This document shows positions 27,021 to 62,624 of a stretch of DNA of 64,000 bases, in pieces. The DNA is taken from IMG/VR virus record IMGVR_UViG_3300037515_000764; one strand, 5' to 3'. Positions within the stretch are counted from its first letter, which is position 1. Each line of letters starts with the position of its first letter. The translations under genes and the position numbers were made by a program. Below the pieces are notes generated by a model. That model was not told the origin of the DNA, searched no databases, and saw only the letters and a list, made by a program, of their open reading frames with translations. This DNA is from an uncultured virus (IMG/VR IMGVR_UViG_3300037515_000764). Lineage: Duplodnaviria > Heunggongvirae > Uroviricota > Caudoviricetes.

Positions 27021-27023
27021 CAA

Positions 27024-28004: not shown

Positions 28005-28077
28005 TGAGCCGTAGTTCAAATGGTAAGAACGCCGTTCTTATAAAGCGGTAATCCTAGTTCAATTCTAGGCGGCTCAA
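28005..28077 (+). tRNA. tRNA-Ile(UAU)
   Basis: Full cloverleaf: TGAGCCG/CGGCTCA, GTTC/GAAC, CCGTT-CTTATAA-AGCGG, CCTAG-TTCAATT-CTAGG. Confidence 0.9.
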
Positions 28078-28202
28078 CAGGAAGCTAAATGAACGCGGCT
28101 TCTAAAATTATAGCGTTAAACTAATATATTTTTAAAGGGCTGTTTAGGTTATTTAACTAGCAGCCCAAATTTCTATCATATAACATAAGGAGCATTACAA
28201 AA

Positions 28203-44647: not shown

Positions 44648-46207
44648 TTAAGTATTCGTAAATAACCATGTAACTGAAATTGTTTCATTATCTGCTATCG
44701 TCCAATCTGAAGCACCAGAACCAGAAACGCAAAGAACGTGGTCTAAACCTACATTGCCTAATTGAACTAAATCGACTTCTAAAGTCGCATCAATAGAGGT
44801 TATGGTTACGATAGCATTTGTTGAACCTGCTGGTGCTGTTGGTGTATCAAAAGTAAATGTTTTTCCTAATGTGCCTGAAGATAAAACGCAATCGCTTGCA
44901 GAATTAAAATTATTTACTGTTACGGTTGCAGTCCCTAAAACTCCAATGGTAGTTGCACCTGCTCCAACATTGTCATCAAATCTCGTATTCGTTTCTAGTT
45001 TTCTATTTATTATTTCGAATTCATCAAAAACATCGGCTTCTTGTTTAGAGGTTAATTCTAGTTCATATAAGAGTTTCGGTATTTCAACTCCTATTTCGCT
45101 TTTAGTTTCATATCGTTCATTGAATGATGCTTTAATTCCAACAAGCTTCAACCAAGTTTCCAATTCGAAAGTTTTAACAAAATCTATTTGGCCTGTTAAA
45201 TCATCTTTTATAGATTCATAAGCGCTTCCTTCGAAATAAAACTTTTCGTGTAATAACGGTGAAGAATCAACTGAAACTTGAACTGTTAAGTTGTAATAAG
45301 GTTCTGATTCTTCCATATCTCTAACGGCTTTGCGATAAAGGGCTAACGCAGCTTGGTTTAATTCGGCTTGGCTTGGTGTTGTATCATTTTCAGTTTTAAT
45401 AACGCTGTAAGAACGTCGTAAAGAACAACCTGTAGCTCTCGTATTATTAACAATTGATTCACCGACAATCTGAAAATCTTGTGTTGGCGAAGATAAAGTT
45501 GGGTCGATATTTAAAGCATCTAATAGCGAAACCGGTAAGTCGATTGATTCACCACTAACAGGAAATAATTTCTTTAATGGTTCCGTTGTCTGTGCTGAAA
45601 ATCTCGGTGCATTTATAATATTGTTTCCTAATATAGCGTATTGGGAATTTATTTTTCTGTCAAACGAACCTATGTCCAAAAGATGATTTGTACCGTCGAA
45701 ACCGCCATATCTTAAAAATGTAGGCGTTCGCATATTTTGAATAATCTCTTGTATCTGTGAAAACAAGTTCTCCTTTGAGCGCAAATCCAATGTAATTTGA
45801 ATATCCGAAAGAGTCGATGTATCGTTTAAAACCCAATTAGTGCCACTGGATGATAGCAAAGTAGCAATTGCAACTGAACCAAGTGTATCTTGGAAGTGAA
45901 AAAGTTGTGATTCTACGCAAACTAATCTTCCAAAGTTATCGTCACATTTTAGTTTTGTTAAAAGTGGATGACTGTTCTCATTTTGAAAATCTGGTATCGC
46001 TAAAGAAGTTTTTATTAGACCAGATATTATTTGAAATCCATTAGAAGCAACAGAAATATCTAATTGATATAAATCCGTATTACCGATGTCTAAAATGTCT
46101 CTTGTAGGTACAACTAAATCAAAAGTTCCAACCTGTCTTTGTCTTAAATTCATTGAAAAAGAAGAAACTTCAACACCTTTGCCGTTGATAATTGCGCGAA
46201 GTGTCAT
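44648..46207 (-). CDS. Baseplate hub/minor tail protein (Tal-like)
   Basis: Second tail gene after the tape measure, 519 aa. Confidence 0.55.
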   Translation of the reverse strand: MTLRAIINGKGVEVSSFSMNLRQRQVGTFDLVVPTRDILDIGNTDLYQLDISVASNGFQIISGLIKTSLAIPDFQNENSHPLLTKLKCDDNFGRLVCVESQLFHFQDTLGSVAIATLLSSSGTNWVLNDTSTLSDIQITLDLRSKENLFSQIQEIIQNMRTPTFLRYGGFDGTNHLLDIGSFDRKINSQYAILGNNIINAPRFSAQTTEPLKKLFPVSGESIDLPVSLLDALNIDPTLSSPTQDFQIVGESIVNNTRATGCSLRRSYSVIKTENDTTPSQAELNQAALALYRKAVRDMEESEPYYNLTVQVSVDSSPLLHEKFYFEGSAYESIKDDLTGQIDFVKTFELETWLKLVGIKASFNERYETKSEIGVEIPKLLYELELTSKQEADVFDEFEIINRKLETNTRFDDNVGAGATTIGVLGTATVTVNNFNSASDCVLSSGTLGKTFTFDTPTAPAGSTNAIVTITSIDATLEVDLVQLGNVGLDHVLCVSGSGASDWTIADNETISVTWLFTNT

Positions 46208-47412
46208 TAGAGTCTCCTAAACCAATGTATAGCAGCTTGGTGAATTTTATTCGTATTGTTTCTAAAGTTCAATATATTTTGAGCAGGTAAAAGTTGGCCC
46301 CACCAAGCTCCTCCACCTGTTTTAATAGCACTTGCCGCATAAAGTCGAGTGGCTAAAGTTTCGGAATTTATAACTCTAGCATGGCCTTCAATATCTCCCA
46401 AAATTAGTATGTCTGTTATTTTTGGCGTTAAGCCGTTTTCTTTATAGAGAGAATTTAAAACATCCCAATCTATTTCGTGTGTTAATTCTCTTAGTGTTAA
46501 AGAGCTAGCTTGTTTTATATCCAAAAAGCTTTTGCCAGATGGAATGACATATTGAATTGAATCTACTTCATCTCTATCAGATAAATCTTCAACAATTTCT
46601 TTTCTTACGAAGCGATAAAGGTAAATGCTTTGAGGTGGTGCAGACCATCTGTACTCATTAACTCTTAGATTAAAATAGCTTTCAGCACCAGTTGACCATC
46701 CCTGAGTTTTACCGATTTCAAAATCATCACCTTCAGCACAGTTCATAAGTCCGCAAACTACATCCAAGTTCAACATCCAATTATAATTTTTAAAATAATT
46801 CTTTTTGAAGTGCTTGCAATCCTTGCAGTCTAAATTTGAACAAGAGGGGAAGATAGAACAATATTTTCTGTGATTTAGTACGTCGAATTCTTCGCATTGT
46901 AAACTTTGTAGAGAATCGCCACCCCATTGCCACATATATTTATTCATTCCGCGCCAATAGTCAGAGAAAGAAATTGTAATATCTATCTCATAATCGTCGG
47001 CATTATTATTATTTACAAGAGTTATTGACTCTATCCGACCAGTTGTTTCGTACCAGTTGTAACTGCATTTTCCACAGCAACATCTATAGCAACAATCATT
47101 TGGAACAGCTTTTAACGGATTAGATATTTCATAGGCTAAAAAGCTTGTAATTTTTCCGATATGTCGATAAAGTCTTTGTAAAGTTTGACCAGCAGTAAAA
47201 TAAGTATCCCAGAGTTTAACGCGCCAAGTTTCACTTCTTGGTTTTGAAATAATTTCGGAAGTGCTAACCAAAGTTCTATAAGAATCTTGTAATTGTACAT
47301 TTGAGCCTATTGGACTAACTGCGCGACTAGGGAAACCAACTGTAAAAGCATTAGTTTGTATATCGCCCACCTGATATAAATGTAAAACGTGTGCGGGAAA
47401 AGGCATTGACAC
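46207..47412 (-). CDS. Distal-tail-like minor tail protein, Cys-rich
   Basis: Position after the tape measure; AAGGAGG RBS. Confidence 0.5.
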   Translation of the reverse strand: MSMPFPAHVLHLYQVGDIQTNAFTVGFPSRAVSPIGSNVQLQDSYRTLVSTSEIISKPRSETWRVKLWDTYFTAGQTLQRLYRHIGKITSFLAYEISNPLKAVPNDCCYRCCCGKCSYNWYETTGRIESITLVNNNNADDYEIDITISFSDYWRGMNKYMWQWGGDSLQSLQCEEFDVLNHRKYCSIFPSCSNLDCKDCKHFKKNYFKNYNWMLNLDVVCGLMNCAEGDDFEIGKTQGWSTGAESYFNLRVNEYRWSAPPQSIYLYRFVRKEIVEDLSDRDEVDSIQYVIPSGKSFLDIKQASSLTLRELTHEIDWDVLNSLYKENGLTPKITDILILGDIEGHARVINSETLATRLYAASAIKTGGGAWWGQLLPAQNILNFRNNTNKIHQAAIHWFRRL

Positions 47413-47454: not shown

Positions 47455-48096
47455 ATGGATGAAGAGAATCACGAAAAAGATTCACCAAATTATTTTTATA
47501 ATTTAAATCCCTTTGAAAATGTAAATGAAAAATTAAATTATGAAGAAATAAGAGACAGTTTAAGAAAACAGATGGAAGAAGAGTTAAAAACCTCCTCTCA
47601 CATTTGGTCTTTAAGAATACCACCACATGAAAGCGATTATAGGAAATTAATCACGGGCGAATGGGTTTCTGAAGAACACGAACCTAAACTATTTGAAACC
47701 GGTTACGTAACTGAAGAATATATAAGAGAAAGATTATTATTTTGCCCAAAAGAACTCTTAGAAAAGTATTACGATTTAAAAGATAAATTAATTAACGAAT
47801 TAAAATACTTTGAATTGTTTTTAAGATCTAAGAATATCGAAAGTGCTTGTGGAATTATTTATTCTCATATTATATTTAAAAATAAAGACGAACCAGTAAC
47901 AGAGGAAGAATTAGTAGAACTCTTAAAGAGTTTTTCTGTTAGCTTTGAAATTAAAAAAGAAGACCTCGAAGAGCTAACAGAGTTCCTAGAAAACTTAGAG
48001 GTTGATGCTTTCATTAGTTCAATTGGCGAGACTAATGAAAGCACCTTTGACAAAAGTTTTTGGTATTTAAAAGTATTAGTTCTTGTTTCTAATTAA
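47455..48096 (+). CDS. Hypothetical acidic protein, moron-like insertion
   Basis: 213 aa, AAGGAG RBS, own promoter, opposite strand to flanking genes. Confidence 0.75.
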   Translation: MDEENHEKDSPNYFYNLNPFENVNEKLNYEEIRDSLRKQMEEELKTSSHIWSLRIPPHESDYRKLITGEWVSEEHEPKLFETGYVTEEYIRERLLFCPKELLEKYYDLKDKLINELKYFELFLRSKNIESACGIIYSHIIFKNKDEPVTEEELVELLKSFSVSFEIKKEDLEELTEFLENLEVDAFISSIGETNESTFDKSFWYLKVLVLVSN

Positions 48097-51000
48097 AGTT
48101 TCGATTTCTAATCTGTGGTGGATTATCCCTAACCCAACTATCTAAAGCATTTCTTACAACATCGGGGGAAACATTCGTAACTTCAGGCGGTATATTTAAA
48201 TGTATATCGCCGAAACTTACTTCTGTTGTATTCCGATTATTTGTAATGCTAGATGTATTACTAACGGGTGTGATGAAACCATTTTCATTTGGTATTAAGA
48301 ATTGGTCTCCACTAGCTGTTGTTAAAAGTTCGGGTTGGTTGCGCTCGTTGACTTGAAATACTGTATTCTTTGAAACATAACCGCCGTCAGCACGTCCACC
48401 ACCAAACGGTAATAATGGTGGAATAGAACCTCCGCCAATTCCTCCTAGAGAATCATTTAAGAGGTTGATTGTACCTATGGTTGCATCTAAATTTGCAACT
48501 AGTGAAATCAGTTGTCCTTCGATACTCGCCAAAGAATTTTGCATTATTGCTGAAGCTGAAACCATTGCATTTGCTGCACGTCCAAAACTATCTTGCACTA
48601 TTAAAGCAAAGAGATTAACAATTTCATTTGTTCTATCTAATCTTTGTTCAACAAGAGCTAACGAGAAATCAAATAATGGTAAGTTTTCTGTTATACCTAA
48701 AACTAATCCATTAACAATATCTCTACCGAAGCCTTGGAAAACAGTTGAAGGTGAAAAAATGCCGGCAATAGTTTGAAAAGCAGAACGGTAAGTTTCGAAT
48801 AATGCAGTCGAGCTTTGTCTAGCCGATTCTTCGCCTTCAGTTAAACCCTCGTTTGTACCAGCGCTAAGGTCGCGTCCGAATTGTTTAAATTTATCTATGT
48901 TTTCTTGAACTTTCAAGTCACTGAAGAATTCTAAATCGCCTTCAGTTAAACCTTCTTCGAAACCGCCACTGAAACCTTCTGCTGCACCAGCGCCAACTTG
49001 TCTAGTAAATTCATCTAAATCGGCTTCATTAGCACCATCTATAAATGATTGTGGTATTTGACCACCTAATTCCTCAAAAGTATTTAAGGTTTCTTGTGGT
49101 ATTTCTACACCCTCAGTTGATATTTGTTCGAGAAAAAGTCCGATAAAATCTAAATCTGTTTCAGAAAAAGTAGCGTTTTCATCGGTTAAACTGTCATTTA
49201 TTTGGTCTAAAAAGAATTGTCCGAGTCCTTCGGGTATTAAATCCGCTAAAGTTTCGGGGTCTAATTGAAGGAAATCTATTCCGAAAAGTGCATTAGCTAA
49301 GAAATTTGGTAAATCGGTTGTTAAACCTTCTAAAATTTCAGTATTTTCTGAGAAGTCTAATAGTTCAGCAACTAAAGCATCTATTTCGTCTTTCGTTACA
49401 TCCAAATCTTTTGCTAGTTGTAGTTTATCTGCTTCACTTAGATTGAATAGATTCTCTCTGAAGAATGATGCTAAATCCGCATCTTCTGATAACCTAGATA
49501 ACAAAGCATCAAAATTTAAATCGCCTGTTAGACCTTCTTCAAGTGCATCTTCTAAAATTTCTTGGAACGGAATTTCTTGTAATTGTCGTTCTAATTCTGC
49601 TAGTCTTTCTTCTTCTAAGGTTGTATCAATATCTAATTCTAAATCTGGTAATTTGAAATCTATTCCTAAGAAATCTAAAGCCTCTTGGCTAAGACCTTCT
49701 AGGAAGCGAAACGGGGAAGATATAGTATTAATAAAATCTTCCATAACAGGTGCTAGAGTTATTGATGCTTTTAAGAAAGCTATTTGAAGTCTTAAAAAGA
49801 AAGCAGGTAAGAAATCAACGAAATCATTTACTAAGTTTTTGAAACCTTGTAAAGCACCGCGTATTTCATCAGAATCCAAAGCGTCTAAGAAGAATATCAT
49901 ATCGTCTAAGAAAGTTAAATCTGTATCTGAAACACCCAGCAATAAAAGAACTTCTTTTATGAACTCTAAAAAGCTTGCTCCAACATCGGTACTTAATTCA
50001 CCCGCCGCAACAATGAAATCTTCTAAGCTTTCGAAAACGGAAGCCAAATCACCAGCGCCGCTTCCCAATGCTATTAGACTATTTATAAAACCACCAAATT
50101 CTTCTATTAATTTAGAAACCTCTGGTGCGTTGTCAGCTAACAGTAATGCGAAACCAGCTATCAAACCAATAGCTAAAATTAATGGCGCTAAAGCTATTGC
50201 AGCTACAACGAAAGCACTAATTGCAGCAAAATTAATTGCTATTCCTAAAGCAGTAAAAGCTAAAGCTAATCCAAGAATACCGGTTTTCAAATCATCATTT
50301 TCGGCAACTTTTACTAGTTCAGTATTTATTGTTGATAGGTTTTGAGTTAACGGTGCTATTATTCGATTTAAACCTTCGAACAAAGGTATCAACCCTTGAA
50401 CGGCGAAAGCAATAGTTTCAAAAGCAACCGCTAAAACGCCAACAGCTAAAATTCCTATCAATTTACCAACTTCAATTACTAAATTCCCAACATTAGTTAT
50501 TAAATCTTTAAACTCTTGCGAACCAAAAGCTTTCTCTAATTCTTCAGCTATCTTTGTTGCATTTTCAGTTATTCCAACGAAATCAAAAATTTCTTCTAGT
50601 TCTTTTAACGCATCGGAAAGTTCTGGGTTTTCGCTAAGAGCATTAGATAAATCGTTAGCAATATTTGTTAAAGCTGTTCCAAAATCTATATCGCCACCTA
50701 AAACACCAATGGCATTTTCAACAGCGGAACCAACTCCGACTCCTAAAACATTACCGATTTCAGATAGCAAAGTTCCAATTTCTTTTATGGCATCTATTCC
50801 TAGAATCTGTCCAAGAATTATTGGTAAATTTGCAAAAGAGTTATTAAAGATTTGCTCTACGATAAAACCGATAGCATCACTGAAAACGCTTCTGTTATCA
50901 ACTAATAAGTCGATAAAGTTAGTGAACATATCTCTAAATGCAACAAATAATGCACCTGATAAATTACCTTCTGAAAGTTTGTCTGTAATATTCTCTGATA

Positions 51001-54000
51001 AGAAACCGTCGCCAAATAGATTTGAAAATAGTTTATCGAATTGTAAAATAATTTGACTTATCGCTAATTCTATATTTCTAAATCCAGCGCGAACATCACC
51101 TGAGAAAATCTGTCTTACGCCCTCAGTTATTCCTAAAAAGCTGGCTTTAACTTGGTTAAATGTATCAACTAATACAGTTGCAAAGTTAACCGCTCTATCA
51201 ATTGCATCGTCACCTTCACCAAAAAGAAACTTAAATAAATCTGTTTCGGCAAAACGACTTTCTATTATATTTCTAACTAAGCGCGAATTTCTATCCGCTT
51301 CAGATAAAAGTTTGTTTCTTTCAATTTGATTTAATTTTGTATCAATGGGGAAATCTAAAAGTTCTTCGTTTAAATCCGCTATTTCTGCATCTAAATCAGT
51401 GAAATCACCAGTAACATCAACAATTAATTCGTCACCCGTAAAAATAAGATTTGGGTCTTCAATTTGCGGGTTAAGTTTGAGCAATTCATCAACGGTTGTT
51501 CCTAAATCAATGGCTAATTGACTTAAAGTATCACCCGATTTTATTGTTATGGTCTCAGTTGATTGTCCGAATCCTTCAACAGAATCCGTAATTTCTGCTA
51601 TTTTTGCATCTACTTCCGTAGTATCAGCGCCAAACTTAATCTGAAAATCTCTTTGTGATTGCAGCTTTTTCAGTTCGTCATTAATAGCAACAAGTTCATC
51701 TCTTCGTTCTAAAAGCGCCTTTCTATCAGAATCTTCTATTAACGGAATATCTATTTGAGGTTCTTGTATTTGAAGTTGTAGGAATTCGAAGAACAATTGA
51801 AGTTCTTGAAAAGTTTTCGTTAAACCTTTTACTTTTTCTGTTATTCTATCAATTACACCAGCTATTATACTCTCAGAACCTTCAGCGCCATTAAAAACAT
51901 CAGAAACACCGATAACAGCAGCTATTAATTGCAAGAAGCTGTTGATTAATGGCTGCGTTACTTTGGAAAGTTCGTTAAAAGCTTGGCCTAGTCTTTCGCC
52001 TGATTTTCTTATTTCTTCAGTATTATTTCTAAAATCATTTATAATTGCAATAACAGCCGTAAAAGCAACAGCCGCCCCAGTAGCAAATGCCGCAAAAATT
52101 CCAGCTAAAACTAGTAAACCTCCGCCTAATGCCACAACAGCCGCAATTAATCCAGCGGGGTTAGTAATAACAAATATTAATGCGCTAAAAGCAAAACTAG
52201 CCGCGATTATTCCAACGCCTATTTGTTGTAATAGTATACCGGATAGTAAAAGAAAAACACCGCTTAATGTTGTAACAATGGCAACTAAAGCTCCTATTGC
52301 AGCGGAAATTGCTAAGAATTCGTCTGGCAAATTGCCTAAGAATTTTAATAGTTCGGCAACAGCTTTTAGTAATGGATGTAAAGCAAAATCTACTAATGGT
52401 CGCAAAGCCTTGAAAGTTAAAGCTTGAGCAGCCGAAGTAATTTGATTAAACGTGCCACGTAAACTCTCACCAATAGCAAGAGCAGCTTCTTCAGCAGTTA
52501 AAGCATCATCCAAAGATTGTCTATATTCGGCAAATGCCAATGTTCCATCATCAGTAGTTTCGATTAGGTTAAGGAAACCGGCAATTGCACGTTGGTCGCC
52601 TAATGCCGAAAGTTGTTCGATAATTTCAACATCCGATAAACCTTCTTTTCTGAAATTTTCTAAGACAGGTATAAATTGAGACATAACATCTTCAAAGGAT
52701 TTAGTATTGCCCTCCGCATCAGTTAAGCCGATATTATATAAGTCTAAGAATTTTCTTGCTTCGTTAGTTGGATTAATCAACGAACTAAAAACAGAACGCA
52801 AAGCCGTACCTGCTCTAGCTCCATCAATACCTCTATCAGCTAAGAAAGCAACAGCGGCGGAAACATCTTCTAGTGAAAATCCAGCAGCCGAAGCTATTGG
52901 TGCGACAAACGATAAAGCTTGTCCAACTGATTCAATCGAACTTACCGAAATGTCAGCAGCACCCGTTAGCGTATTAACAATTTGGGTTGTATTTTCAACT
53001 TCTAAGCCGAAACCATTCATAATTTGAATAACAAGTTCAGACGTTGAACCAAGTTCTATTTGACCAGCAGTTGCTAAATCCAAAACATCTTTAAGAGCCA
53101 ATTGAGAATCGGCAAGTGATAAACCGGCTTTTTGTAGTTCTAGGAAACCAGCAGCGATTTCAACAGGAACAAAAGCAGAATTAGTTCCTAAATCCAAAAT
53201 AGATTCTTCGATTAATTTAATTTCGCTAACTGTTGCTCCGCCGAACACTTGAATTTGTGAGATAAGAGCATCAAAATTAGCAAATTCATTTAACTGTTTG
53301 CCTTGTAGTAAACTAAATAGACCACCAGTCGCAATTAACTGTGTACCTAATCGAGAAATATCTCTACCAAAGTTTAGTAAATCTCTGCCTGTTTCTCTTA
53401 ATCTTCTAGAAGCTTGAGTTGTAAAGAAGCGTATTGCATCATCTAAACGCCCAAGCGTATTTTCAATTAAGAATTTGAACGGTTTTTCAAAGGCCGTCGT
53501 AAATGCTTCGGCTAATGTTTCGCCCAAACCGCCGAACAGTGTTGTAAAACCTAAAATCGTATCGGTAAAGCCAGTAGCAGTTAATCTTGCAATACTCGCC
53601 ATAACTCTAGAAGGCGAAGCGATTCCCAAAGTTTGTTTAACCGAATTTATAAAGGCGTTAGCTATATTTTTGCCGGAAGTTGCTAATTGTGTTCCTAAAT
53701 CTTTAAACGAAAAACCGTCAGCTATTGATTGTCTGATTTGTTTAAATTCACCGACTAGAAAATCGAAATCTAAAGTTTTAGCAGTTTTGCGCAAACCTAA
53801 TAGTTCGTCTTCTAGGCCGTCTAATTTTATTTTCTCTAGTTGCTTTAATGATACGACAGCCGTATCTGCTTTTCTAGAGAGTGCGTCAAAACCTCCGCCT
53901 AATTGCGGTTTAGTTATTTGTTCTATACTTATTGCAGTTTTTTGAGCACTTACTGAAACTTGTTTTAATTCTGTATTTGTTTCATCTAATTCCGAATTGA

Positions 54001-55831
54001 ATCTGTCTACTGAAACACCGCGAAATGTAAAAGCATCAGAAGCAGATGTTTTGAATAGTAAGACCGTTTTTGTTAATTCTTTTAATTTCTGGTCGAAGTT
54101 TTCTAATTCTACAGTAGTTCCTTTTTCGAGAATATTAAAATCGAAGTTTTGTCCACCCAGAATATTTTTTACTCTATTCAAACCAGCAGTTAAAGCAGAA
54201 ACTATTACATTTATAAAAGAATCTTCGCCCGTGAAAAGACTTTTTATTTGTCTAGCTAAAAACTTAAAAGTTGTTATTAAACCCTGAAAAGCTAATTTCG
54301 CTGCTGGAATAACCAAACGAGTAAATGCAGTACCTAATGCTTTAGCAAAACCAGTTGCAAAGCTTAAAGCTATTTCAAAGTTACTTCGTGCAAAAGAACC
54401 TTTAGCAGACTTAGTTATAACGTCAAAAATTCTCGGCAAATCTCTTTGTAAATCGTTGCCTATTTGACCTAAATTACCCGTTGAAAGTTTTTCTAATCTC
54501 TCTAAGGCTTTGGCTAAATTGTCGATACCAACAGAGAACTTTCTAAATTCATCTACATCTGGTATATCTTTTAATATTTTACTTATGCCAGAAACAAAGA
54601 CTCTTAATGCGGGAATTAGTTTATTGTTAACATCTGCTGCAAATTTATTAATTGTAGATATTTGTACAGAACCACCAGTTCCAAAAATTCCAGAAAAGAG
54701 TTTTCCTATAAAGCTCGTTCTTTCGTTTCTATTAACCGTAGTAAAAGTATCTGTTTGGTCTGTAATTGTGGCAACAGATTGAATGAAACGGGGCAAGAAG
54801 TTTCCAAGTACCGATAGACTCTGTGAAACAGAATTCAATCTTTCCGGTGATATTTTAACAGACTCAAATGCGTTTATAGAATTCGCTAATTGTTGAAAAA
54901 TTAGAGGGAGATTCTTAAGAGCACCTGTTATCTCCAAGGCTCTTTTGCCAAATAGAATAAATCTTTTTGCTCCCGTTGCAGAAACGGATTGCTCTAATAT
55001 AGTAATAATATTAGGTAGTGTTTTAAAGAAAGTTCCCAGACCGGCAAATGTTTCACCGATTTCGCGTAAACCTCTTACATCAGGTATAGATTCAAATCTT
55101 TTAAGAGATTTAACTAATACTCTTATAACAGCATCGAAACCTTCGAAATCCTTAACGAAATCCCTAAAACCCGAAACTTCCAAATCGGCTTTTTTAGCTA
55201 CATCTTGAAATTTTCTGAAAGTTTCTATTATTTTAGAAATAGCCGTTAAAGCTTCTGCTGAATTTCTGATAACTTGAGTATCTGCAATTTTATCAAAGCT
55301 GGCAAGAGACGAAGCTAATATCGGAACTACTTTTTGCATCTCTTTTGCTATCATTGAAACAAAAACTAATGCCTCACCAAAACCTTGATTGAAATCACTA
55401 CTTATTTCATTTTTAATTCCCTTTGATAACTCGAAAAAAGAATTAAAGAAACCACTAAACGAATTTAAGAACTGAGATAAATTTCTGAATAAATCTTCTC
55501 TGCCAATAACAGATAATCTATTGATTGAATCTACAATTGCATCGGCAAATTTTGTTAAGCCAGAAAAATCTTCGGTATTAAATTTAGTAAAGTTTTTTAA
55601 ATCGATATCGAAAGAATTAAATAAGTTTTTAAAATTAGTTGTAGCGACACTAGAAATCTTTGAAATTCTTGCTAATTTTTGTTCAAAAGCATCGAAAGCC
55701 TTATCTGCTCTCTGTAAAGTCCCATCTAAGTTTGCAATTAAAGGTTCCAATTTTTCAACTTGGTCTATAAATTCAGTTAGACCAGTTATACGAATCTCAA
55801 AACCACCTGATGCAGTTGGGTTATCTGCCAT
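48089..55831 (-). CDS. Tape measure protein with TP901-type core and internal LysM domain
   Basis: 2580 aa helical; GIDGARAGTALR core; TM segments; LysM IKSGDTLSQLA..LNPQIEDPNLI; C-terminal RADGG. Confidence 0.92.
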   Translation of the reverse strand: MADNPTASGGFEIRITGLTEFIDQVEKLEPLIANLDGTLQRADKAFDAFEQKLARISKISSVATTNFKNLFNSFDIDLKNFTKFNTEDFSGLTKFADAIVDSINRLSVIGREDLFRNLSQFLNSFSGFFNSFFELSKGIKNEISSDFNQGFGEALVFVSMIAKEMQKVVPILASSLASFDKIADTQVIRNSAEALTAISKIIETFRKFQDVAKKADLEVSGFRDFVKDFEGFDAVIRVLVKSLKRFESIPDVRGLREIGETFAGLGTFFKTLPNIITILEQSVSATGAKRFILFGKRALEITGALKNLPLIFQQLANSINAFESVKISPERLNSVSQSLSVLGNFLPRFIQSVATITDQTDTFTTVNRNERTSFIGKLFSGIFGTGGSVQISTINKFAADVNNKLIPALRVFVSGISKILKDIPDVDEFRKFSVGIDNLAKALERLEKLSTGNLGQIGNDLQRDLPRIFDVITKSAKGSFARSNFEIALSFATGFAKALGTAFTRLVIPAAKLAFQGLITTFKFLARQIKSLFTGEDSFINVIVSALTAGLNRVKNILGGQNFDFNILEKGTTVELENFDQKLKELTKTVLLFKTSASDAFTFRGVSVDRFNSELDETNTELKQVSVSAQKTAISIEQITKPQLGGGFDALSRKADTAVVSLKQLEKIKLDGLEDELLGLRKTAKTLDFDFLVGEFKQIRQSIADGFSFKDLGTQLATSGKNIANAFINSVKQTLGIASPSRVMASIARLTATGFTDTILGFTTLFGGLGETLAEAFTTAFEKPFKFLIENTLGRLDDAIRFFTTQASRRLRETGRDLLNFGRDISRLGTQLIATGGLFSLLQGKQLNEFANFDALISQIQVFGGATVSEIKLIEESILDLGTNSAFVPVEIAAGFLELQKAGLSLADSQLALKDVLDLATAGQIELGSTSELVIQIMNGFGLEVENTTQIVNTLTGAADISVSSIESVGQALSFVAPIASAAGFSLEDVSAAVAFLADRGIDGARAGTALRSVFSSLINPTNEARKFLDLYNIGLTDAEGNTKSFEDVMSQFIPVLENFRKEGLSDVEIIEQLSALGDQRAIAGFLNLIETTDDGTLAFAEYRQSLDDALTAEEAALAIGESLRGTFNQITSAAQALTFKALRPLVDFALHPLLKAVAELLKFLGNLPDEFLAISAAIGALVAIVTTLSGVFLLLSGILLQQIGVGIIAASFAFSALIFVITNPAGLIAAVVALGGGLLVLAGIFAAFATGAAVAFTAVIAIINDFRNNTEEIRKSGERLGQAFNELSKVTQPLINSFLQLIAAVIGVSDVFNGAEGSESIIAGVIDRITEKVKGLTKTFQELQLFFEFLQLQIQEPQIDIPLIEDSDRKALLERRDELVAINDELKKLQSQRDFQIKFGADTTEVDAKIAEITDSVEGFGQSTETITIKSGDTLSQLAIDLGTTVDELLKLNPQIEDPNLIFTGDELIVDVTGDFTDLDAEIADLNEELLDFPIDTKLNQIERNKLLSEADRNSRLVRNIIESRFAETDLFKFLFGEGDDAIDRAVNFATVLVDTFNQVKASFLGITEGVRQIFSGDVRAGFRNIELAISQIILQFDKLFSNLFGDGFLSENITDKLSEGNLSGALFVAFRDMFTNFIDLLVDNRSVFSDAIGFIVEQIFNNSFANLPIILGQILGIDAIKEIGTLLSEIGNVLGVGVGSAVENAIGVLGGDIDFGTALTNIANDLSNALSENPELSDALKELEEIFDFVGITENATKIAEELEKAFGSQEFKDLITNVGNLVIEVGKLIGILAVGVLAVAFETIAFAVQGLIPLFEGLNRIIAPLTQNLSTINTELVKVAENDDLKTGILGLALAFTALGIAINFAAISAFVVAAIALAPLILAIGLIAGFALLLADNAPEVSKLIEEFGGFINSLIALGSGAGDLASVFESLEDFIVAAGELSTDVGASFLEFIKEVLLLLGVSDTDLTFLDDMIFFLDALDSDEIRGALQGFKNLVNDFVDFLPAFFLRLQIAFLKASITLAPVMEDFINTISSPFRFLEGLSQEALDFLGIDFKLPDLELDIDTTLEEERLAELERQLQEIPFQEILEDALEEGLTGDLNFDALLSRLSEDADLASFFRENLFNLSEADKLQLAKDLDVTKDEIDALVAELLDFSENTEILEGLTTDLPNFLANALFGIDFLQLDPETLADLIPEGLGQFFLDQINDSLTDENATFSETDLDFIGLFLEQISTEGVEIPQETLNTFEELGGQIPQSFIDGANEADLDEFTRQVGAGAAEGFSGGFEEGLTEGDLEFFSDLKVQENIDKFKQFGRDLSAGTNEGLTEGEESARQSSTALFETYRSAFQTIAGIFSPSTVFQGFGRDIVNGLVLGITENLPLFDFSLALVEQRLDRTNEIVNLFALIVQDSFGRAANAMVSASAIMQNSLASIEGQLISLVANLDATIGTINLLNDSLGGIGGGSIPPLLPFGGGRADGGYVSKNTVFQVNERNQPELLTTASGDQFLIPNENGFITPVSNTSSITNNRNTTEVSFGDIHLNIPPEVTNVSPDVVRNALDSWVRDNPPQIRNRNFN

Positions 55832-55846
55832 ATTTTACCTCCTTCC

Positions 55847-56395
55847 TTATTTGATAATACTAACAGTTATGTTAGTCAAACCAGCAATACCGTTCTGTTG
55901 CAAATCACTATTTATTTCGTCTTGGACAACCTGAGTGAAATTACGTGCTTTCATACCTTTTCTTGTTTGTCCGGCACGTATCCACGTTGTAGCTTGAACT
56001 TCACCAGCAGGTTTAATATTAAAAGTACCAGAAGATGTTCTATCCGGTTTCCGAATATCAAAATAGGGTGAATTCTTTGTGAAAACAGTATCACTAGTGC
56101 CTTCGTCTAACCATTTATAAAGTCTATGAGGGTCTTTAGTTCCAGCAACCACAACGGCAAATTTAATTACGATTTCTATTTGTTTTCCGACAATTTTAAA
56201 GTCGAAATCTAAATCTAATTCTGGTTCGCCGAATTGTTCTTTATTTACTATTTGAAATATCTCTGAATAAAAACCCTCAAAACGACTTTTCAAGTTTCTT
56301 CTGATAGTTTCTTTTTGTTCTTCATTTAGAGAAGCAACAACAAATCTATCTTTTATTTTCCTAAAACTGCTAAGAATACTTTTATATTTAGCCAC
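55847..56395 (-). CDS. Tail completion/neck protein (HK97 gp10-like)
   Basis: YKWLDEGT and GMKARNF motifs. Confidence 0.55.
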   Translation of the reverse strand: MAKYKSILSSFRKIKDRFVVASLNEEQKETIRRNLKSRFEGFYSEIFQIVNKEQFGEPELDLDFDFKIVGKQIEIVIKFAVVVAGTKDPHRLYKWLDEGTSDTVFTKNSPYFDIRKPDRTSSGTFNIKPAGEVQATTWIRAGQTRKGMKARNFTQVVQDEINSDLQQNGIAGLTNITVSIIK

Positions 56396-56756
56396 TATTC
56401 TTAGCCTTTCTTACTTCTTCTTTTTGCAATTGCGCGTGTCTATCTAAAATTGATAACATATTCTTAATTTGATAAATAGTTACCCATTTAGCTTGTTCCT
56501 CTAAAGATAGACTATCCCAAATTTCTGTTAAATTCATATCCAAAGCCGCCCTTAGAACAACATATTCAGTCGGGGATTTTGTTATTTTAACATCGCCAAA
56601 AAGTTTGGCTGTATATTCAGGGCTATGAGAGGCGAAATACATAACAGCATCGTAACGAGTTTTTAAATCATATTCGTCGTAAGCATACTCGACTGTTGGC
56701 TGTAAACGCCTCATCCAAATCATCATCCAATCGTTAAGACTGAAAGTTGTTATCAT
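56388..56756 (-). CDS. Putative tail assembly chaperone (second ORF)
   Basis: Between tail tube and tape measure; WDSLSLEEQAKW pattern. Confidence 0.5.
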   Translation of the reverse strand: MITTFSLNDWMMIWMRRLQPTVEYAYDEYDLKTRYDAVMYFASHSPEYTAKLFGDVKITKSPTEYVVLRAALDMNLTEIWDSLSLEEQAKWVTIYQIKNMLSILDRHAQLQKEEVRKAKNSG

Positions 56757-57348
56757 CTACGCTATCAAGCGCCCCTGCTAAAATCTTGCTAAAAAGCTGA
56801 GAAGCTAATAACTGTATTTCATTTCCAAATTGGGGGTTGTCATTGGTTAGTGTTTCAATAACTGCTAATTTGCGTTCAAGTGGGTGGAATCTATTTAAAC
56901 TTGGAAGAGGGGGTAAAAGATTTTCAATTCTTCGCGAATTAGCCTGTTTTCTATCCCAAAAATTATCAGGGATTTTAACTTCTATTTCTTCGTTTGTAAA
57001 TTCTATACTTTTTGATTTAAAATTAGAATTTAAAAGTGCAAGAATAAAAGCTTGACCTCGTGTTTCGCGTTCAAATCTTTCGTGTTCGTTTCTAACAATA
57101 GTTATTAAACCATCGACAAGTTCTTCTGTAGCTGCGGGGGATTCATCGGCTAAACCGTTCTCTTTGGCATAGGCCGCTAAAAGTATAACGTCTCGGTGTG
57201 CAGCATTAATGTTTGAGGTGATATCTCTTGAGGAAAGTAGTGCATCTGAAAAATCTGTGAATAATTTTCCAGTCTTTTCATTCAGAGATAAGATTAATGA
57301 CCCTCCTCCATCAAGTACCAATTCCTTTTTGATATTTATGGAAGCCAT
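56734..57348 (-). CDS. Putative tail assembly chaperone
   Basis: Directly after the tail tube gene; AAGGAG RBS. Confidence 0.5.
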   Translation of the reverse strand: MASINIKKELVLDGGGSLILSLNEKTGKLFTDFSDALLSSRDITSNINAAHRDVILLAAYAKENGLADESPAATEELVDGLITIVRNEHERFERETRGQAFILALLNSNFKSKSIEFTNEEIEVKIPDNFWDRKQANSRRIENLLPPLPSLNRFHPLERKLAVIETLTNDNPQFGNEIQLLASQLFSKILAGALDSVDDNNFQS

Positions 57349-57408: not shown

Positions 57409-58875
57409 TTAAGCGTTGGGGAATCTTGGTGAAGCAATAACGAGTTCGCCTGCATCAGTACCGGCAACAATCCAAAAACGTTGCAAAGAGGTATCAATGC
57501 CTTGAATGTCTGTGTAATCACCTGCAATAGTCGTTGAACCATCACGGGCAACAACTTCTTTCCATTGTCGCGAAGAACAAGGGTCGGAACGGTAAATAGA
57601 ACTACCAATAGCGGCATAAACTTCATAAGCATCACCTGCAAGGTAAGTATCGCCAGAAGCAGGCAACAGACGGTCACTCCAAATTGAGAAATCATCTGAT
57701 TCAGTATAGAAGTTAACACCAGCAACAGCAACCCAATTATCGCGGCTATGAATGTCAGTAATAGCTTGAGCAGCAGCAGTTGAAACACTAGCAGTAATAT
57801 CAATAATAACTTGGATATTGCTGTTGTAAGTTAAAACTACACCCGCACCGCCATCAACACCACCAATTAAGAAGATACTTTGGTCTTCAAAATATTCGAT
57901 AGTATAGAAATCAGCAGTAGCTGCAACAGTATTTGATACAGCAGTGAAAGAAGCAAGCGTATTACTTTGAGCAATATTACCGTCAGAACCAACAGCAACA
58001 TAAGTACCACCTGCAAAAGCCACATCAAAGAAAGCTTCAACGGGAGCATTGCCAGCGGTTGAAAGGTCGGTAAATGTAGTACCAGCATCAGCCGAAACAG
58101 CAATACCACCAGTTGTAGCGGTAGCGGGGTCTACATCATCAGCATAAGTAATAACAATGTTGTTACCATTAACTAAAATATCAGTAACGATTGACAAAGC
58201 AGGCAATGTTGGTGACAAATCTGTACCGCTAACGAAACGGTCAGTCGTAATTTCTAAGTTAAGAGCTTCCCCGCCATAATAGCCGTCCAAGAATCGAACG
58301 GAAGTACAACCAACACATTCTTCTTCTGCCCAAGCAACTGCATGAACGGCATCTTCATTAGTTTGAGCTAAAACGAAATCTGTGTAGTAGTAAGTTAAAT
58401 CTTGGCCTGTTGCCGAAAGGGTCGTTTGGGCTGTTAATGGAGTACCACCACCGTCAGCACCTTCAACAAAAGTACCTTGACGTTGCAAAGAACCTACCGT
58501 AAAATCGGGAATTCTAACAAAGTGATTATATTCGGTACGTTGCGGACACAGATAACAAAGAATCAAATCGCGTCTACATTCGCTTTCGGATAAAACCTGA
58601 ATTTCATTCCAAAGCGTATAACCTTGCGGAATTGTTAATGTCCAGTCAACCTTTTGCACTCTTGCGCCACGCAATGTAATTGTAACAGGTACGAGTTGAC
58701 CGCCTCTAAATTCGACGCAATTAACTTCGATTGGGTCTGATAACGTATAATCTGCATCAGAAAGGGTATAACAGCGCAAATCAATTAAGTCGTCATATGA
58801 ATGTTCAGCACTCATTAACATATGATAACTAAAAGTGTGAAGCGCCGGCCCCCATAATTTTTGAGTTTTTGCCAT
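57409..58875 (-). CDS. Major tail (tube) protein with C-terminal beta-propeller-like extension
   Basis: Position; SADAGTTF BNR-like and YVAVGSDG repeats; followed by GCCCCG/CGGGGC hairpin. Confidence 0.6.
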   Translation of the reverse strand: MAKTQKLWGPALHTFSYHMLMSAEHSYDDLIDLRCYTLSDADYTLSDPIEVNCVEFRGGQLVPVTITLRGARVQKVDWTLTIPQGYTLWNEIQVLSESECRRDLILCYLCPQRTEYNHFVRIPDFTVGSLQRQGTFVEGADGGGTPLTAQTTLSATGQDLTYYYTDFVLAQTNEDAVHAVAWAEEECVGCTSVRFLDGYYGGEALNLEITTDRFVSGTDLSPTLPALSIVTDILVNGNNIVITYADDVDPATATTGGIAVSADAGTTFTDLSTAGNAPVEAFFDVAFAGGTYVAVGSDGNIAQSNTLASFTAVSNTVAATADFYTIEYFEDQSIFLIGGVDGGAGVVLTYNSNIQVIIDITASVSTAAAQAITDIHSRDNWVAVAGVNFYTESDDFSIWSDRLLPASGDTYLAGDAYEVYAAIGSSIYRSDPCSSRQWKEVVARDGSTTIAGDYTDIQGIDTSLQRFWIVAGTDAGELVIASPRFPNA

Positions 58876-58888
58876 TTCTTAAATCCTC

Positions 58889-59227
58889 CTAAAATTTAAT
58901 ATAAGTTGCTAATTTGCTTAAAACTCTTTGCGAGATATTTTTTACTAGGCGCGGATTATCTTCTAAATCTTCTAACGAAAAGAAACCGTTTTCCCAATAA
59001 ATATTATTTAAAAGACCTTTATCGAAACCAGCGAAGAAATCTGATACCTTGGGTAGCAACTTATATTCTTCTGAATAAAAATCTCTTTTTCCTTTTGGAG
59101 CTAATCTCAAATCTCCATTATATTCTACAACATCAGTTGTTTTATAGTTAGCTAAAAAAGAAGCTCTAACATCATGTTTCTTTTTTTCTTTAACTACTTC
59201 TTTTAACTCTTTTACTTCTTCTTCCAT
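58889..59227 (-). CDS. Hypothetical protein
   Basis: 112 aa, coupled. Confidence 0.7.
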   Translation of the reverse strand: MEEEVKELKEVVKEKKKHDVRASFLANYKTTDVVEYNGDLRLAPKGKRDFYSEEYKLLPKVSDFFAGFDKGLLNNIYWENGFFSLEDLEDNPRLVKNISQRVLSKLATYIKF

Positions 59228-60465
59228 TAGAAAGCGTAGCCTCCATCTATAATTCTTAAATTACGTATCGCATCCCAAGCCATAATAGCGCCTCTTCTAA
59301 AACCCCATCTATATGTGTTTTGCATATTGGAGGTCATAAAAACAGCCTCTTCGTTATTAACCATGCCAATATTTGGTTGTCTATAAAAGTGTAGCGGACT
59401 ACATTTACAGGAACAATTTTCACATGGTAATAAGGAAGCAGCCAACCAAGAAATTATTTGAGCACATCTAAAATTCATTCTACCGTTAGATTGTCTTGGA
59501 CAACCTGCAATATAATTAATTGTTAATGTTTTATTTGTACAACATGAGCAGGTTCCACAACCACAACAATCAAATGTGTCTGTTTCTTCATCTAATGTCG
59601 CAATTCTGGTCTCAATTAAACTTAATTTTTTGTTAATCGTATTTGCGCAAAAAGATTCTTGGGAAACAGTACAGCAGCCATTATCACATTGATATGAACC
59701 TGTATTAGTCGTATTTAAAGTTTTAGTGTAAATAGTAAAACGAGTTTCATAAAAATCTAAATCTGTTAGCTCTAAAGCACTCGGATTAGGTATTGTAACT
59801 TCATCTGCTTTTACAATTAAAAAAGATTTTCCACATATATTAATTTGGGTATCATCATTTATAAGTGTTGCCGTTATCGGCTTAACTTCCCATTCGAGAC
59901 ATTCATCATTCTGACAATTATTTTGAACATCAGGGTGGTAAACTAAAACTATTTCATTAGGTAAAGTTCCACTTGGCAAATCGCCTACATCAATTACTAA
60001 ATTAAATTCAGAAAGCGGGTCTATATCAACTGGCAATAAATTAACTTCATTTATTACTCTAGTATAAGTATAAGTTCCTAAACTCTGAATATATTTTCCG
60101 CCTAAAGCCACTCTATGAGCGCAGTTGTGACTATAATATTGTTTACTACTATAGCCACTTCCACGTAAGTAATCTCTAAGAATAAATTCTTCTGTAATTT
60201 CTCTTGGAGCGGGATAATAGCCCGTCTCTTCATAGAACATATGTTCTGCCTGATGAATGGCCCGTTGAATATCGTCTCTAGCTAACTCTTGATTTTGCCA
60301 AAGATATTCGTAAAAAACTTCATCACATTCGTTATCATCAGAAAAGATTGGATTGGTATCTGAAGGGTCAACAGAACTTAATTGATGTAGTTGAAAAGGG
60401 TTTAAACCGATTATATGCGCAAATTCAGTTAATGTTAATAAATTGTCACAATAATGGTTAAGCAT
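59227..60465 (-). CDS. Head-tail connector/adaptor-like protein, very Cys-rich
   Basis: Position; LARDDIQRAIHQAE..YYPAP, INYIAG motifs; about 22 Cys. Confidence 0.55.
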   Translation of the reverse strand: MLNHYCDNLLTLTEFAHIIGLNPFQLHQLSSVDPSDTNPIFSDDNECDEVFYEYLWQNQELARDDIQRAIHQAEHMFYEETGYYPAPREITEEFILRDYLRGSGYSSKQYYSHNCAHRVALGGKYIQSLGTYTYTRVINEVNLLPVDIDPLSEFNLVIDVGDLPSGTLPNEIVLVYHPDVQNNCQNDECLEWEVKPITATLINDDTQINICGKSFLIVKADEVTIPNPSALELTDLDFYETRFTIYTKTLNTTNTGSYQCDNGCCTVSQESFCANTINKKLSLIETRIATLDEETDTFDCCGCGTCSCCTNKTLTINYIAGCPRQSNGRMNFRCAQIISWLAASLLPCENCSCKCSPLHFYRQPNIGMVNNEEAVFMTSNMQNTYRWGFRRGAIMAWDAIRNLRIIDGGYAF

Positions 60466-60779
60466 TAATCTAAAGCTTTCTCTTTAAGTATTAGCGAAAG
60501 GCCAGCAATAGATGTGATAAAAAGAATTTTTTCGAAGATATTTTCACCAAGATAAAAGCCAAAGGGAATCGAAACCCAAACTGAATTGCAATAAAAACAG
60601 TTAAAGATTTCAGAAAATCCTTTGTATTTAACGACTGGTAAACCTGCTGGTGTTTCTGCACCTACTAAAATTCTAATCTTTTGAGACAGGTGTAAAAAAC
60701 CATCTTCATAAACTAATAAGTAAGAAATTCTAAAAACAGCAAACGAACTAAGTATGACGTATAAGAAGTTCTCTAGCAT
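60465..60779 (-). CDS. DUF1360-family membrane protein (CxxC)
   Basis: AVFRISYLLVYEDG...FNCFYCNSVWVS. Confidence 0.75.
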   Translation of the reverse strand: MLENFLYVILSSFAVFRISYLLVYEDGFLHLSQKIRILVGAETPAGLPVVKYKGFSEIFNCFYCNSVWVSIPFGFYLGENIFEKILFITSIAGLSLILKEKALD

Positions 60780-61239: not shown

Positions 61240-61241
61240 TT

Positions 61242-62624
61242 TTAGTCGCCGTACTCGTAACTAAATTGCTTGTCGGGAACCCATTCGTAATTAATAAATT
61301 TGGCAGCCAAGAACGGGGTAAGCAAGAGAACGCGCCATACGATACGACCACACGCCTTCAGACACCACTTAACCAACTCAATAGCCCAGATGTATTTACC
61401 ATCATCAGACCAAAGCAAATCAGCAACGCGACTACCCAAACCAGCTAATTGTTCTGGCAATTGTGACCAGTCCAAATATTCCAAGTAAGTAGCAGGTGCT
61501 CCGCCGTCATAAGTGATTGGCAAAACAACAATTGGTGAAGAAACACTACCATTTGTAACATTGTCATCGGCGATTTCAAGTCCACGAATCGTTGGGTCTG
61601 CTGAGTTCTTAGACAAGGGAATACCTGTATCTAAAACAACGTCATAGCGATTACCATTTAAGAACAAGAATTTATTTTGAAGCATTTGGTTGCGTTCGCG
61701 TCGAAGCTCATTAGCGTCAAAAAAGATTTGTTGTGACATAGCGCTTTCAGAAGAAGGCTCTTCACAGGTGAGTTCTAAACAGCACGACCATTGCTTAGTT
61801 AATTCCCACCAAGTATAGGGGTGCATGAAAATCTTCCAGAAATTGGGCGCACAAGCTTCACCACGAATAGTCCATTCCATTTCGGCGATAAATAATTCGC
61901 GAATCAAATCACAATCGAGCGGTGCATAGGAGCCTTCGGTATCACCATCAATTACTTGACTATCAACGTCAGGGCATAAGGTGATGCCATCAGTATCAGT
62001 ATAACCAGTTGTTACCCAATTGAGCAAACCGAGTGGTTCTTTGTAGCCAGTACCAACATTGTTAGATGAAGTACCCGTCCAAATAGTTCTCGAAAGTTTT
62101 CTATGAAATAGCTTAGCAACACCAACCATTTCAGAACGAATAACGGTGTTAAGCATATTATTTTGGTCAACAGGAGTTTGTAATGCGCCCATATCGCCAA
62201 TTACACGGCAACGCAAACGCAAGTCTCTTGTATCACCGCGACAGGCATTCATAATAATTCGACCAGCTTCAACAGTATTCATGCACCGTTGCAAGTCACC
62301 GAATTCAGCCGTAATTTTACAAGTTTCCCACAAACCAGTTGGTGCATCTTCACACACAGTTTCTGGTTCAAGCGCTTCGGAATCTTCATTGAAACCAGTT
62401 AAAAGACCGAAGATGGGATTTTCATTTACTGTTGCAAAAGCTTCAATTTCTGCTAAAATGCCAAAAGGGTTAACAAGTGCTGAAACAATGTCACGCTCAA
62501 TACAAGCATCAGAAAACAAGCCTGTTGAACCATGAAATAAAGTTGCTTCATTTTCAGACGCTACAGAAATTGTAACATCCTTATTCGCATCTTGCCCAAG
62601 CTGTAAAACAATCTTATCTTTCAT
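61242..62624 (-). CDS. Major capsid protein
   Basis: 460 aa after protease and scaffold; IWTG...YKEPLGL motif of HK97-fold capsids. Confidence 0.8.
   Translation of the reverse strand: MKDKIVLQLGQDANKDVTISVASENEATLFHGSTGLFSDACIERDIVSALVNPFGILAEIEAFATVNENPIFGLLTGFNEDSEALEPETVCEDAPTGLWETCKITAEFGDLQRCMNTVEAGRIIMNACRGDTRDLRLRCRVIGDMGALQTPVDQNNMLNTVIRSEMVGVAKLFHRKLSRTIWTGTSSNNVGTGYKEPLGLLNWVTTGYTDTDGITLCPDVDSQVIDGDTEGSYAPLDCDLIRELFIAEMEWTIRGEACAPNFWKIFMHPYTWWELTKQWSCCLELTCEEPSSESAMSQQIFFDANELRRERNQMLQNKFLFLNGNRYDVVLDTGIPLSKNSADPTIRGLEIADDNVTNGSVSSPIVVLPITYDGGAPATYLEYLDWSQLPEQLAGLGSRVADLLWSDDGKYIWAIELVKWCLKACGRIVWRVLLLTPFLAAKFINYEWVPDKQFSYEYGD

Follow-up and report, generated by a model that had tools for sequence, protein, structure and literature searches.

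The tape measure gene and its neighbours

The window analysed here, 64,000 nucleotides from an uncultured virus of the Caudoviricetes, carries on its minus strand a giant gene (48089..55831) for a protein of 2580 residues. Profile searches locate a TP901-family core at 52283..53281, with TIGR01760 matching residues 851–1183 (139.8 bits, cut-off 28.8) and PF10145 residues 876–1060 (129.4 bits, cut-off 33.2); judged from these profiles, the product is a TP901-type tape measure protein with a putative role in tail length and in ejection upon infection. At the 0.145 nm per residue given in an extract of PMC5099701, it would belong to a long-tailed phage with a tail of up to about 370 nm. A LysM domain free of Tyr is located at 51419..51550 (residues 1428–1471). 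The gene is the longest of the tail module in the window and at two further loci, L116 and L119; in all three it sits between a chaperone-like pair and tail-tip-like genes, these flanking genes being named by position only.

Counting from the translation gave no Cys, one Trp (residue 2566), two His (1152 and 2544), four Tyr (1032, 1103, 2348 and 2485) and 11 Met. Cys, Trp, His, Tyr and Met together make up 0.70% of the 2580 residues, a value referred to below as the five-residue fraction; Phe occurs 215 times (8.3%). The counts, abundant Phe and length in the original prediction were correct, and the first Tyr, placed there about 1000 residues in, is residue 1032. The longest stretch devoid of all five residues spans residues 166–743 (578 residues, 53603..55336, minus strand). 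The C-terminal 250 residues (48089..48841, minus strand) hold six of the 17 non-initiator Met, Trp, Tyr and His, and no other region is purged so little across the clade described below.

Other virion genes, all on the minus strand, served as controls. The probable major capsid protein (61242..62624, 460 residues; C14 W14 H3 Y12 M10) is unpurged at 11.5%; SU10_MCP, found on 35% of members in some Atlas clusters, is a lead to its identity. A Cys-rich virion protein (59227..60465, 22 Cys, 15.5%), a head-tail adaptor by position only, is encoded syntenically in L116 and L119. The probable major tail protein, also named by position (57409..58875), has 9.8%, and its structure model was uninformative (pLDDT 39.8). 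Two overlapping ORFs of 204 and 122 residues (56388..57348) occupy what by position only is the tail assembly chaperone site, a similar pair being present in L116 and L119, and two tail-tip candidates, again by position (44648..47412), have 15.2% (401 residues) and 5.6% (519 residues). The neighbours had been described as Tyr-rich, which does not hold for all of them; the product of 56734–57348 has one Tyr in 204 residues.

The tape measure of L116 has a five-residue fraction of 0.9% and that of L119, which has an open end, 0.6%, at GC 0.46–0.47 and with unpurged neighbours. The purge is thus limited to the tape measure in three of three loci over GC 0.35–0.47, the other virion proteins having 3–17%. 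Capsid Met is low in the three loci (matched or undercut by 0, 0 and 8 of 71 relatives), as is capsid Tyr (by 2, 3 and 25 of 71), the three capsid proteins being phylogenetically non-independent.

Composition across tape measures and within the clade

The comparison set was drawn from 305 proteins of at least 600 residues which, collapsed at 60% identity, gave 221 non-redundant tape measures outside the query's clade; its length filter excluded L211, a 353-residue fragment with a five-residue fraction of 0%. The core domain as such had 47,512 hits. The 221 have a minimum of 1.51% and a median of 6.06%. None is as low as the query, which confirms that it lies outside the general range of tape measures. 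Median rates predict about 24 Trp, 11 His, 31 Tyr and 78 Met per 2580 residues; residue by residue, the query's level is matched or undercut for Trp in five, His in seven, Tyr in two and Met in two of the 221, and its Phe fraction is the highest of 222. Outside the clade, the 21 proteins with 2000 residues or more span 1.9–8.0%. The best GenBank phage matches to the query fall short of 30% identity, none of them spanning 80% of it, so no cultured relative was found there; the capsid protein of the window has no match among GenBank phages. Zero Cys is usual for tape measures (179 of the 221; 45 of 54 in another set) and Cys, one of the five residues originally singled out, is therefore not part of the signal.

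With TP901-family tape measures (PF10145, TIGR01760) the query shares the core, the gene position, the lack of Cys and a helical make-up rich in Leu, Ala, Ile and Phe. It differs in its length, in a core that begins some 850 residues in, in its central LysM domain and in a five-residue fraction far from the 6.06% median. Phe may replace Trp as the marker in W/F-marked tape repeats, according to extracts of Belcaid 2011 (PMC3271669) and Mahony 2016 (PMC5099701); those extracts treat spacing and mention no case in which Met, Tyr and His are lost together. The query differs in being without a demonstrated strict 11-residue repeat: Phe spacing has a weak peak at lag 18 (29 against 17.9 expected) and lag 11 lies outside the top ten, in a test other than the published F/W patterns themselves.

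The query belongs to an uncultured clade of 43 giant tape measures with five-residue fractions of 0.4–6.6% (median 3.4%). Exceptional against non-clade proteins, it is only the fourth lowest here; it is not unique but one end of a within-clade continuum. Across the clade tree, Met, Trp, Tyr and His are gained and lost jointly, which is the new result. In 42 contrasts on a tree built with M, W, Y, H and C masked, no other of 3876 four-residue sets correlates as well as these four, and their six pair correlations (r 0.44–0.68) rank 1–5 and 7 of 171. They rank 1–6 of 171 in 19 sister pairs; once the three pairs at the extremes are removed, r lies at 0.40–0.73, with p>0.1 for two of the six and p=0.051 for a third. 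Four of the five residues first proposed thus form the most tightly co-varying set. Purge extremes occupy at least four separate places on the tree; sister pairs of a low and a high member include query/P0071, P0073/P0002, P0007/P0156 and P0001/P0079. The purge is protein-wide, front and back halves correlating at r=0.87, and Met in either half tracks the Trp+Tyr+His content of the opposite half (r=0.58 and 0.61). Pro, which is as rare, is independent of it (r −0.19 to 0.11), and Lys correlates with Met at r=0.44 and with Tyr at r=0.23 (p=0.13; 42 contrasts). Block co-variation is absent among the 221 tape measures outside the clade (M–Y 0.03, W–Y −0.17, W–H 0.00, M–W 0.28, Y–H 0.31). The root estimate for the clade is about 2.7%, so that some high values may be regains; the trees, quick IQ-TREE and FastTree reconstructions, disagree on the sister of one member, P0076.

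Six low/high pairs were compared over 12,071 aligned columns, full-length clade pairs being 25–42% identical. Met gives way to Leu (72 against 17 in reverse) and Ile (32 against 11), Tyr to Phe (18 against 2) and Trp to Phe (6 against 1), an asymmetry partly built in by the choice of pairs; directional Y/W-to-F change, which the note proposed to look for in homologues, is among these swaps. Lys-to-Arg, which had no part in choosing the pairs, is also asymmetric (83 against 29), and control swaps are symmetric (F/L 115/125, I/L 215/227, D/E 101/105, N/D 51/51). The purge extends into the conserved core (1.4% against 4.9%), where Tyr-1103 is kept in 30 of the 43 clade members. Codon footprints of Met-to-Ile or Lys-to-Arg change (ATA, AGR) are seen in the window and absent from L116 and L119. 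LysM is present in 25 of the 43 clade tape measures. Its lack of Tyr in the query, noted at the outset, is real but weak evidence, since six of the 25 have a Tyr-free copy, three of these at 2.3–4.3%, and P0073, in which the purge is strongest, retains two Tyr in this domain.

Habitat and host

The query DNA occurs in runs labelled sediment, as judged from the runs with the highest shares; eight runs with shares under 0.2 were left out of this habitat reading. Capsid relatives (31–33%) were found in two of 43 pattern-matching genome contigs, one from an Anaerolineales and one from a Desulfuromonadales assembly, the tape core being absent from both assemblies. In 401 genomes of the phylum of the Anaerolineales assembly, 21 had tape measures, all shorter, and Chloroflexota as host is a weak lead. 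Single-protein scans of viral contigs gave no matches. There is no host-wide purge, because 44 tape-like proteins from the host-candidate genomes span 0–8.8%. A photosynthetic reaction centre was not found in any of the five genomes tried. A gene of the DNA-repair family PF03013 (27492–27893), the MSMEG_6728 family, was rejected as a marker of light; the family has matches in Thermotoga, Lactococcus and Methanosarcina, and the L116 record, which is 62% complete, gave no match to the gene.

Possible causes of the purge and their meaning

The swaps are directional and conservative and the effect is GC-independent and confined to the tape measure, which argues for selection at the protein level. 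Our best reading, which we hold with evenly balanced confidence, is selection against chemically reactive side chains; the joint movement of residues is suggestive of chemical damage as what is selected against, but falls short of proof. Clade-wide selection of varying strength would remove Met, Trp, Tyr and His and, to a lesser degree, Lys (Cys is missing already), and would put inert equivalents (Leu or Ile, Phe, Arg) in their place, the tape measure presumably keeping its ordinary function. The cause may be selective oxidants or electrophiles that the virion encounters when free or within the envelope of its host. Great length, the absence of repair in the particle and the need to slide from the tube would make the tape measure the vulnerable part; a single cross-link or polar adduct on it could block ejection. 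Its loosely constrained side chains would allow it a loss of residues that capsid and tube could not afford.

Table 6 of PMC4819570 lists Cys, Met, Trp and Tyr, as well as His, as targets shared by singlet oxygen and carbonate radical, with Lys as an additional target of HOCl/HOBr; an extract of PMC8746199 describes di-Tyr and di-Trp cross-links as irreversible. The original prediction of selection by oxidation stands in so far as the residue set matches these targets of selective oxidants. Singlet oxygen or light, however, is not singled out, because carbonate radical has the same five targets, the runs are labelled sediment and Lys falls too. Also counter to an oxidant are the high capsid Cys and Trp (70 of 71 relatives have no more) and the lack of any sign of light from the sediment-labelled runs. 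The proteome of D. radiodurans, in an extract of PMC7705453, resembles the query clade in having less Lys (0.71×), more Arg (1.57×) and less Cys and Met, but has about 1.3× more Trp and Tyr and more His, which speaks against the oxidant reading; an extract of PMC10967345, on animals and prokaryotes, has only Cys generally avoided in oxidative adaptation, Met being sometimes raised. In the oxidation-adapted proteomes of these two extracts Trp, Tyr and His rise or stay, proteome-wide, whereas in the query they are near zero in one protein.

We regard as rather doubtful a structural or host-envelope fit, in which Met, Trp, Tyr and His slightly impair tube sliding, chaperone binding or membrane insertion, through interface anchoring or metal or haem ligation, and lineages differ by host or selection efficiency instead of oxidant load. 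We know of no single structural property that Met, His, Tyr and Trp would share to the exclusion of Phe, Leu and Arg. The total hydrophobic fraction is flat with purge (r=0.08), and tape measure length is no predictor of the purge (r −0.08, −0.05). The block co-variation is nevertheless specific to this clade and this protein, any shared mild cost with varying selection efficiency would give the same correlations and, Trp and Phe being interchangeable as tape markers in the extracts of PMC3271669 and PMC5099701, W-to-F change can be structurally neutral. A shortage of these amino acids or their tRNAs in the host, through starvation or tRNA-cutting defence, with the longest gene most prone to stalling, is unlikely. 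The query costs 22.33 per residue against 22.29 in its unpurged sister, an equality due to the rise in Phe; the high-copy capsid protein is unpurged, the tape gene lacks codon optimisation (100 of its 218 Ile codons are ATA, against 0 of 29 in the capsid gene) and the surviving residues cluster at the C-terminus, where drop-off costs most. Consistent with a shortage, Met, Trp, Tyr, His and Cys are rare and costly, an RNA ligase gene is present in both the window and the L116 record, and mean cost per residue drops with purge in 19 pairs (r=0.55, p=0.012; the values are reportedly those of Akashi and Gojobori). Synthesis cost makes a weak case as the cause. Flagellin-like cheap extracellular proteins likewise have few Cys, Trp, His, Tyr and Met and pass a narrow channel; the query differs in being low-copy, in its content of Phe, one of the costliest residues, which is the highest of 222, and in costing the same as its sister.

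Neutral drift of a helical protein with internal duplications and little constraint would account for the 0.4–6.6% continuum among pairs 25–42% identical and for some repeat content in relatives. It is very unlikely: low GC should favour Tyr and Met codons, the purge occurs at GC 0.35 and 0.47 and in the conserved core with its halves coordinated, and 37 of 40 listed variant sites (604 in total, from close relatives) are synonymous, so that the gene is under purifying selection. The three non-synonymous sites create none of the five residues, against 6.6% under neutrality, in a sample without power. Motif avoidance or an overlapping antisense gene would fit the many opposite-strand ORFs of 60–170 residues in the window, but a DNA-level cause is refuted, as the triplets for these residues are common out of frame in all three genes (TGG, for example, occurs once in frame and 24 and 76 times off) and codon shuffling yields antisense ORFs just as long, the observed maximum being reached in 125 of 200 shuffles. 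Thermophilic adaptation raises Tyr, Trp and charged residues and lowers Asn and Gln; it was rejected, with r=0.02 for charged-versus-polar and r=−0.25 for N+Q, and IVYWREL rises with purge (r=−0.48) via Leu, Ile and Arg only, Tyr and Trp falling. Halophilic adaptation brings acidic excess, low Lys and fewer large hydrophobics; acid excess against purge gave r=−0.38 (p=0.10), both Phe and Leu increase, and the capsid protein of the window is more acidic than all 71 relatives. Avoidance of a host protease, suggested earlier, fits badly because Phe and Leu, which are chymotrypsin-type sites, and Arg rise.

No published description of joint loss of Met, Trp, Tyr and His from tape measures was found in the main texts of a mostly open literature, and the earlier interpretation as a whole is partly supported. 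Extending the reading of selection against reactive side chains, we propose tentatively that tape measures record the oxidant load of the niche, independent lineages having stripped redox-reactive residues to keep particles ejection-competent. The five-residue fraction would then be a sequence-readable marker of chemical stress on virions, and tail jamming would be a main natural route of phage decay; loss of phage infectivity in nature is usually ascribed to damage of genome, capsid or receptor-binding proteins. The repeated, protein-specific purge would mark the ejection machinery as the vulnerable point and would show, with unusual clarity, amino-acid choice governed by side-chain chemistry, opposite to the Trp- and Tyr-keeping pattern of cells. 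If the cause is structural, the purge still identifies the side chains that impede a tape of such length, and the clade offers natural low/high sister pairs.

Composition of the query tape measure

The ORF at 48089-55831 (-) encodes a 2580-aa protein with a LysM domain and a TP901 tape measure core (PF10145, TIGR01760); its domains and position place it in the TP901 tape measure family. It contains no Cys, 1 Trp, 2 His, 4 Tyr, 11 Met and 215 Phe, with the first Tyr at residue 1032. Most neighbours are without a family match and are named from position only. No recognisable sheath gene was found in the surrounding virion module. The phage also encodes DNA polymerase III alpha, DnaB, primase and RNA ligase, and the runs containing most of its DNA carry the label sediment (five with a share >0.2, one possibly the source). 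An acidic 213-aa ORF (47455-48096, +) sits between the query and the next tail gene, on the strand opposite to the query, whose end it overlaps by 8 bases; it has no family match and was not found at the corresponding place in L116, a related locus. An overlapping ORF pair in the tail chaperone position (56388-57348, -) is kept in L116 and a further locus, L119.

As background, homologue-search proteins were pooled with profile-picked tape ORFs from loci, giving 305 proteins of at least 600 aa from outside the query's clade, or 221 after collapse at 60% identity. Their combined Cys/Trp/His/Tyr/Met share has a median of 6.06% and a minimum of 1.51%; none of the 221 lies at or below the query's 0.70%, which confirms the original observation of a protein nearly empty of Trp, His, Tyr and Met. 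Among the non-clade proteins, the 21 with 2000 aa or more have shares of 1.9-8.0%, and the range among 17 loci with GC <=0.42 is 1.8-8.8%. Ranked with 54 core-domain homologues (1428-4342 aa), the query is second lowest of 55. Because these sets were gathered through their similarity to the query, the comparison should be conservative. The absence of Cys, also taken as part of the signal, proved ordinary (179 of the 221 background proteins and 45 of the 54 homologues have none); the background ranges thus mark only the Trp/His/Tyr/Met loss as real and extreme. One unrelated tape measure group (loci L183, L186-L189, L191, L192 and L199) has 3-6 Met, 1-3 Trp and 0-1 His with normal Tyr and high Lys, a different, partial purge.

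Recurrence and co-variation within the clade

A representative search and two contig scans assembled a clade of 43 giant tape measures (1670-3737 aa, core central, LysM in 25), for which no cultured relative was found. The combined share runs from 0.4 to 6.6% (median 3.4%), the query being fourth lowest. Extremes are scattered on both trees, the second of which was built with these residues masked. Sister proteins differ sharply: the query at 0.7% vs P0071 at 5.4% (100*), P0007 at 0.5% vs P0156 at 2.9% (100*), and P0073 at 0.4% vs P0002 at 2.8% (83). A low subgroup includes L116 (0.9%) and L119 (0.6%). With a root estimate of about 2.7%, some of the high values may be regains. L211 (G120:C93:1-1059), a whole 1059-base contig of GC 0.63, encodes 353 aa of TP901-type core from which Cys, Trp, His, Tyr and Met are all missing; the purge is not seen in a rough sample of ORFs from its assembly. 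It may be misbinned, and might be an independent lineage that shares the trait. In four assemblies of one order (G440, G444, G424, G617; L229-L257) we observed up to 10 scattered copies of a ~780-aa PF10145 gene, which may be a repeated small element and not whole prophages.

The four residues move together. Across 19 disjoint pairs drawn from the first tree, the first six places out of 171 all go to the six Met/Trp/Tyr/His correlations (r 0.66-0.84). Dropping the three most extreme pairs leaves r at 0.40-0.73, with two p >0.1 and one p of 0.051. In 42 contrasts on the masked tree they rank 1-5 and 7, and His/Met/Trp/Tyr comes first of 3876 four-residue sets, the next four bringing in Lys. No such block co-variation was seen in the 221 proteins outside the clade. 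The two halves of the protein agree in purge (r=0.87; cross-residue r 0.58 and 0.61), and neither Pro nor length tracks it. Every region is purged, the last 250 residues least, which rules out domain content as the cause. In aligned low/high pairs the swap counts are M>L 72:17, M>I 32:11, H>N 5:0 and, for directional changes to Phe, Y>F 18:2 and W>F 6:1. How the pairs were chosen partly builds in these asymmetries; it does not affect K>R, at 83:29, and control swaps are symmetric.

Confinement to the tape measure protein

The purge is limited to the tape measure and acts on protein. Capsid, Cys-rich, tail and tail-tip proteins of the window, L116 and L119 have combined shares of 5.6-15.9%, and two short proteins of the window have 2.9%. 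Against 71 relatives, the three capsid proteins contain little Met and, in part, little Tyr; their Cys content is high, and so is Trp in two of the three. The window capsid is Cys-richer than 70 of the 71 and more acidic than all 71. Very Cys-rich virion proteins of the window (59227-62624 and 46207-47412, both -) carry 22, 14 and 13 Cys, including Cys-Cys pairs.

A cause at the DNA level is very improbable and fits worse, as the triplets for the missing residues occur commonly in other frames, and codon shuffles give comparable antisense ORFs. Supply or translation also fits worse and seems unlikely. The query gene, with ATA at 100 of 218 Ile codons (capsid gene, 0 of 29), is not tuned for fast translation. 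ATA makes up 0 of 31 Ile codons in the probable tail gene and 34-46% in virion genes of low copy number, the tape measure among them. The window encodes a tRNA-Ile with anticodon TAT (28005-28078, +), a tRNA-like element whose anticodon call is abnormal, at two bases (26949-27021, +), and a gene assigned to the pyrimidine-dimer glycosylase (PF03013)/MSMEG_6728 families whose glycosylase function is putative (27492-27893, +).

Selective oxidants and other candidate explanations

The proposed selection against reactive residues is partly supported. Table 6 of PMC4819570 lists Cys, Met, Trp and Tyr along with His as targets of singlet oxygen, matching the expected set, but those of carbonate radical are identical; HOCl/HOBr adds Lys, and hydroxyl radical attacks all residues. 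The rise in Phe would favour a selective agent. Di-Tyr and di-Trp links are described as irreversible (PMC8746199). Side chains of the tape can in part be dispensed with, TP901-1 reportedly staying infective with an 11-residue tape repeat swapped for alanines (PMC5099701). Few adducts might suffice to disable a chain that is very long, goes unrepaired and has to slide, and the tape measure might shed reactive residues at little cost, as folded shell proteins could not. Against an oxidant mechanism counts the cellular oxidative adaptation described in PMC7705453 and PMC10967345, where Trp, Tyr and His are kept or raised, unlike in the query; nor did a link to habitat or host emerge. The same correlations would arise from a cause in structure or the envelope if selection varied in efficiency; this is the likeliest of the alternatives, at something over one chance in four. 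Drift fits worse and is less probable even than supply or translation.

Trp/Phe interchange in tape repeats is already known (PMC3271669). A literature search covering mainly open-access papers turned up no coordinated, recurrent, protein-specific Met/Trp/Tyr/His purge. The compositional observation is confirmed as a robust and surprising evolutionary pattern, and the clade offers natural test pairs.
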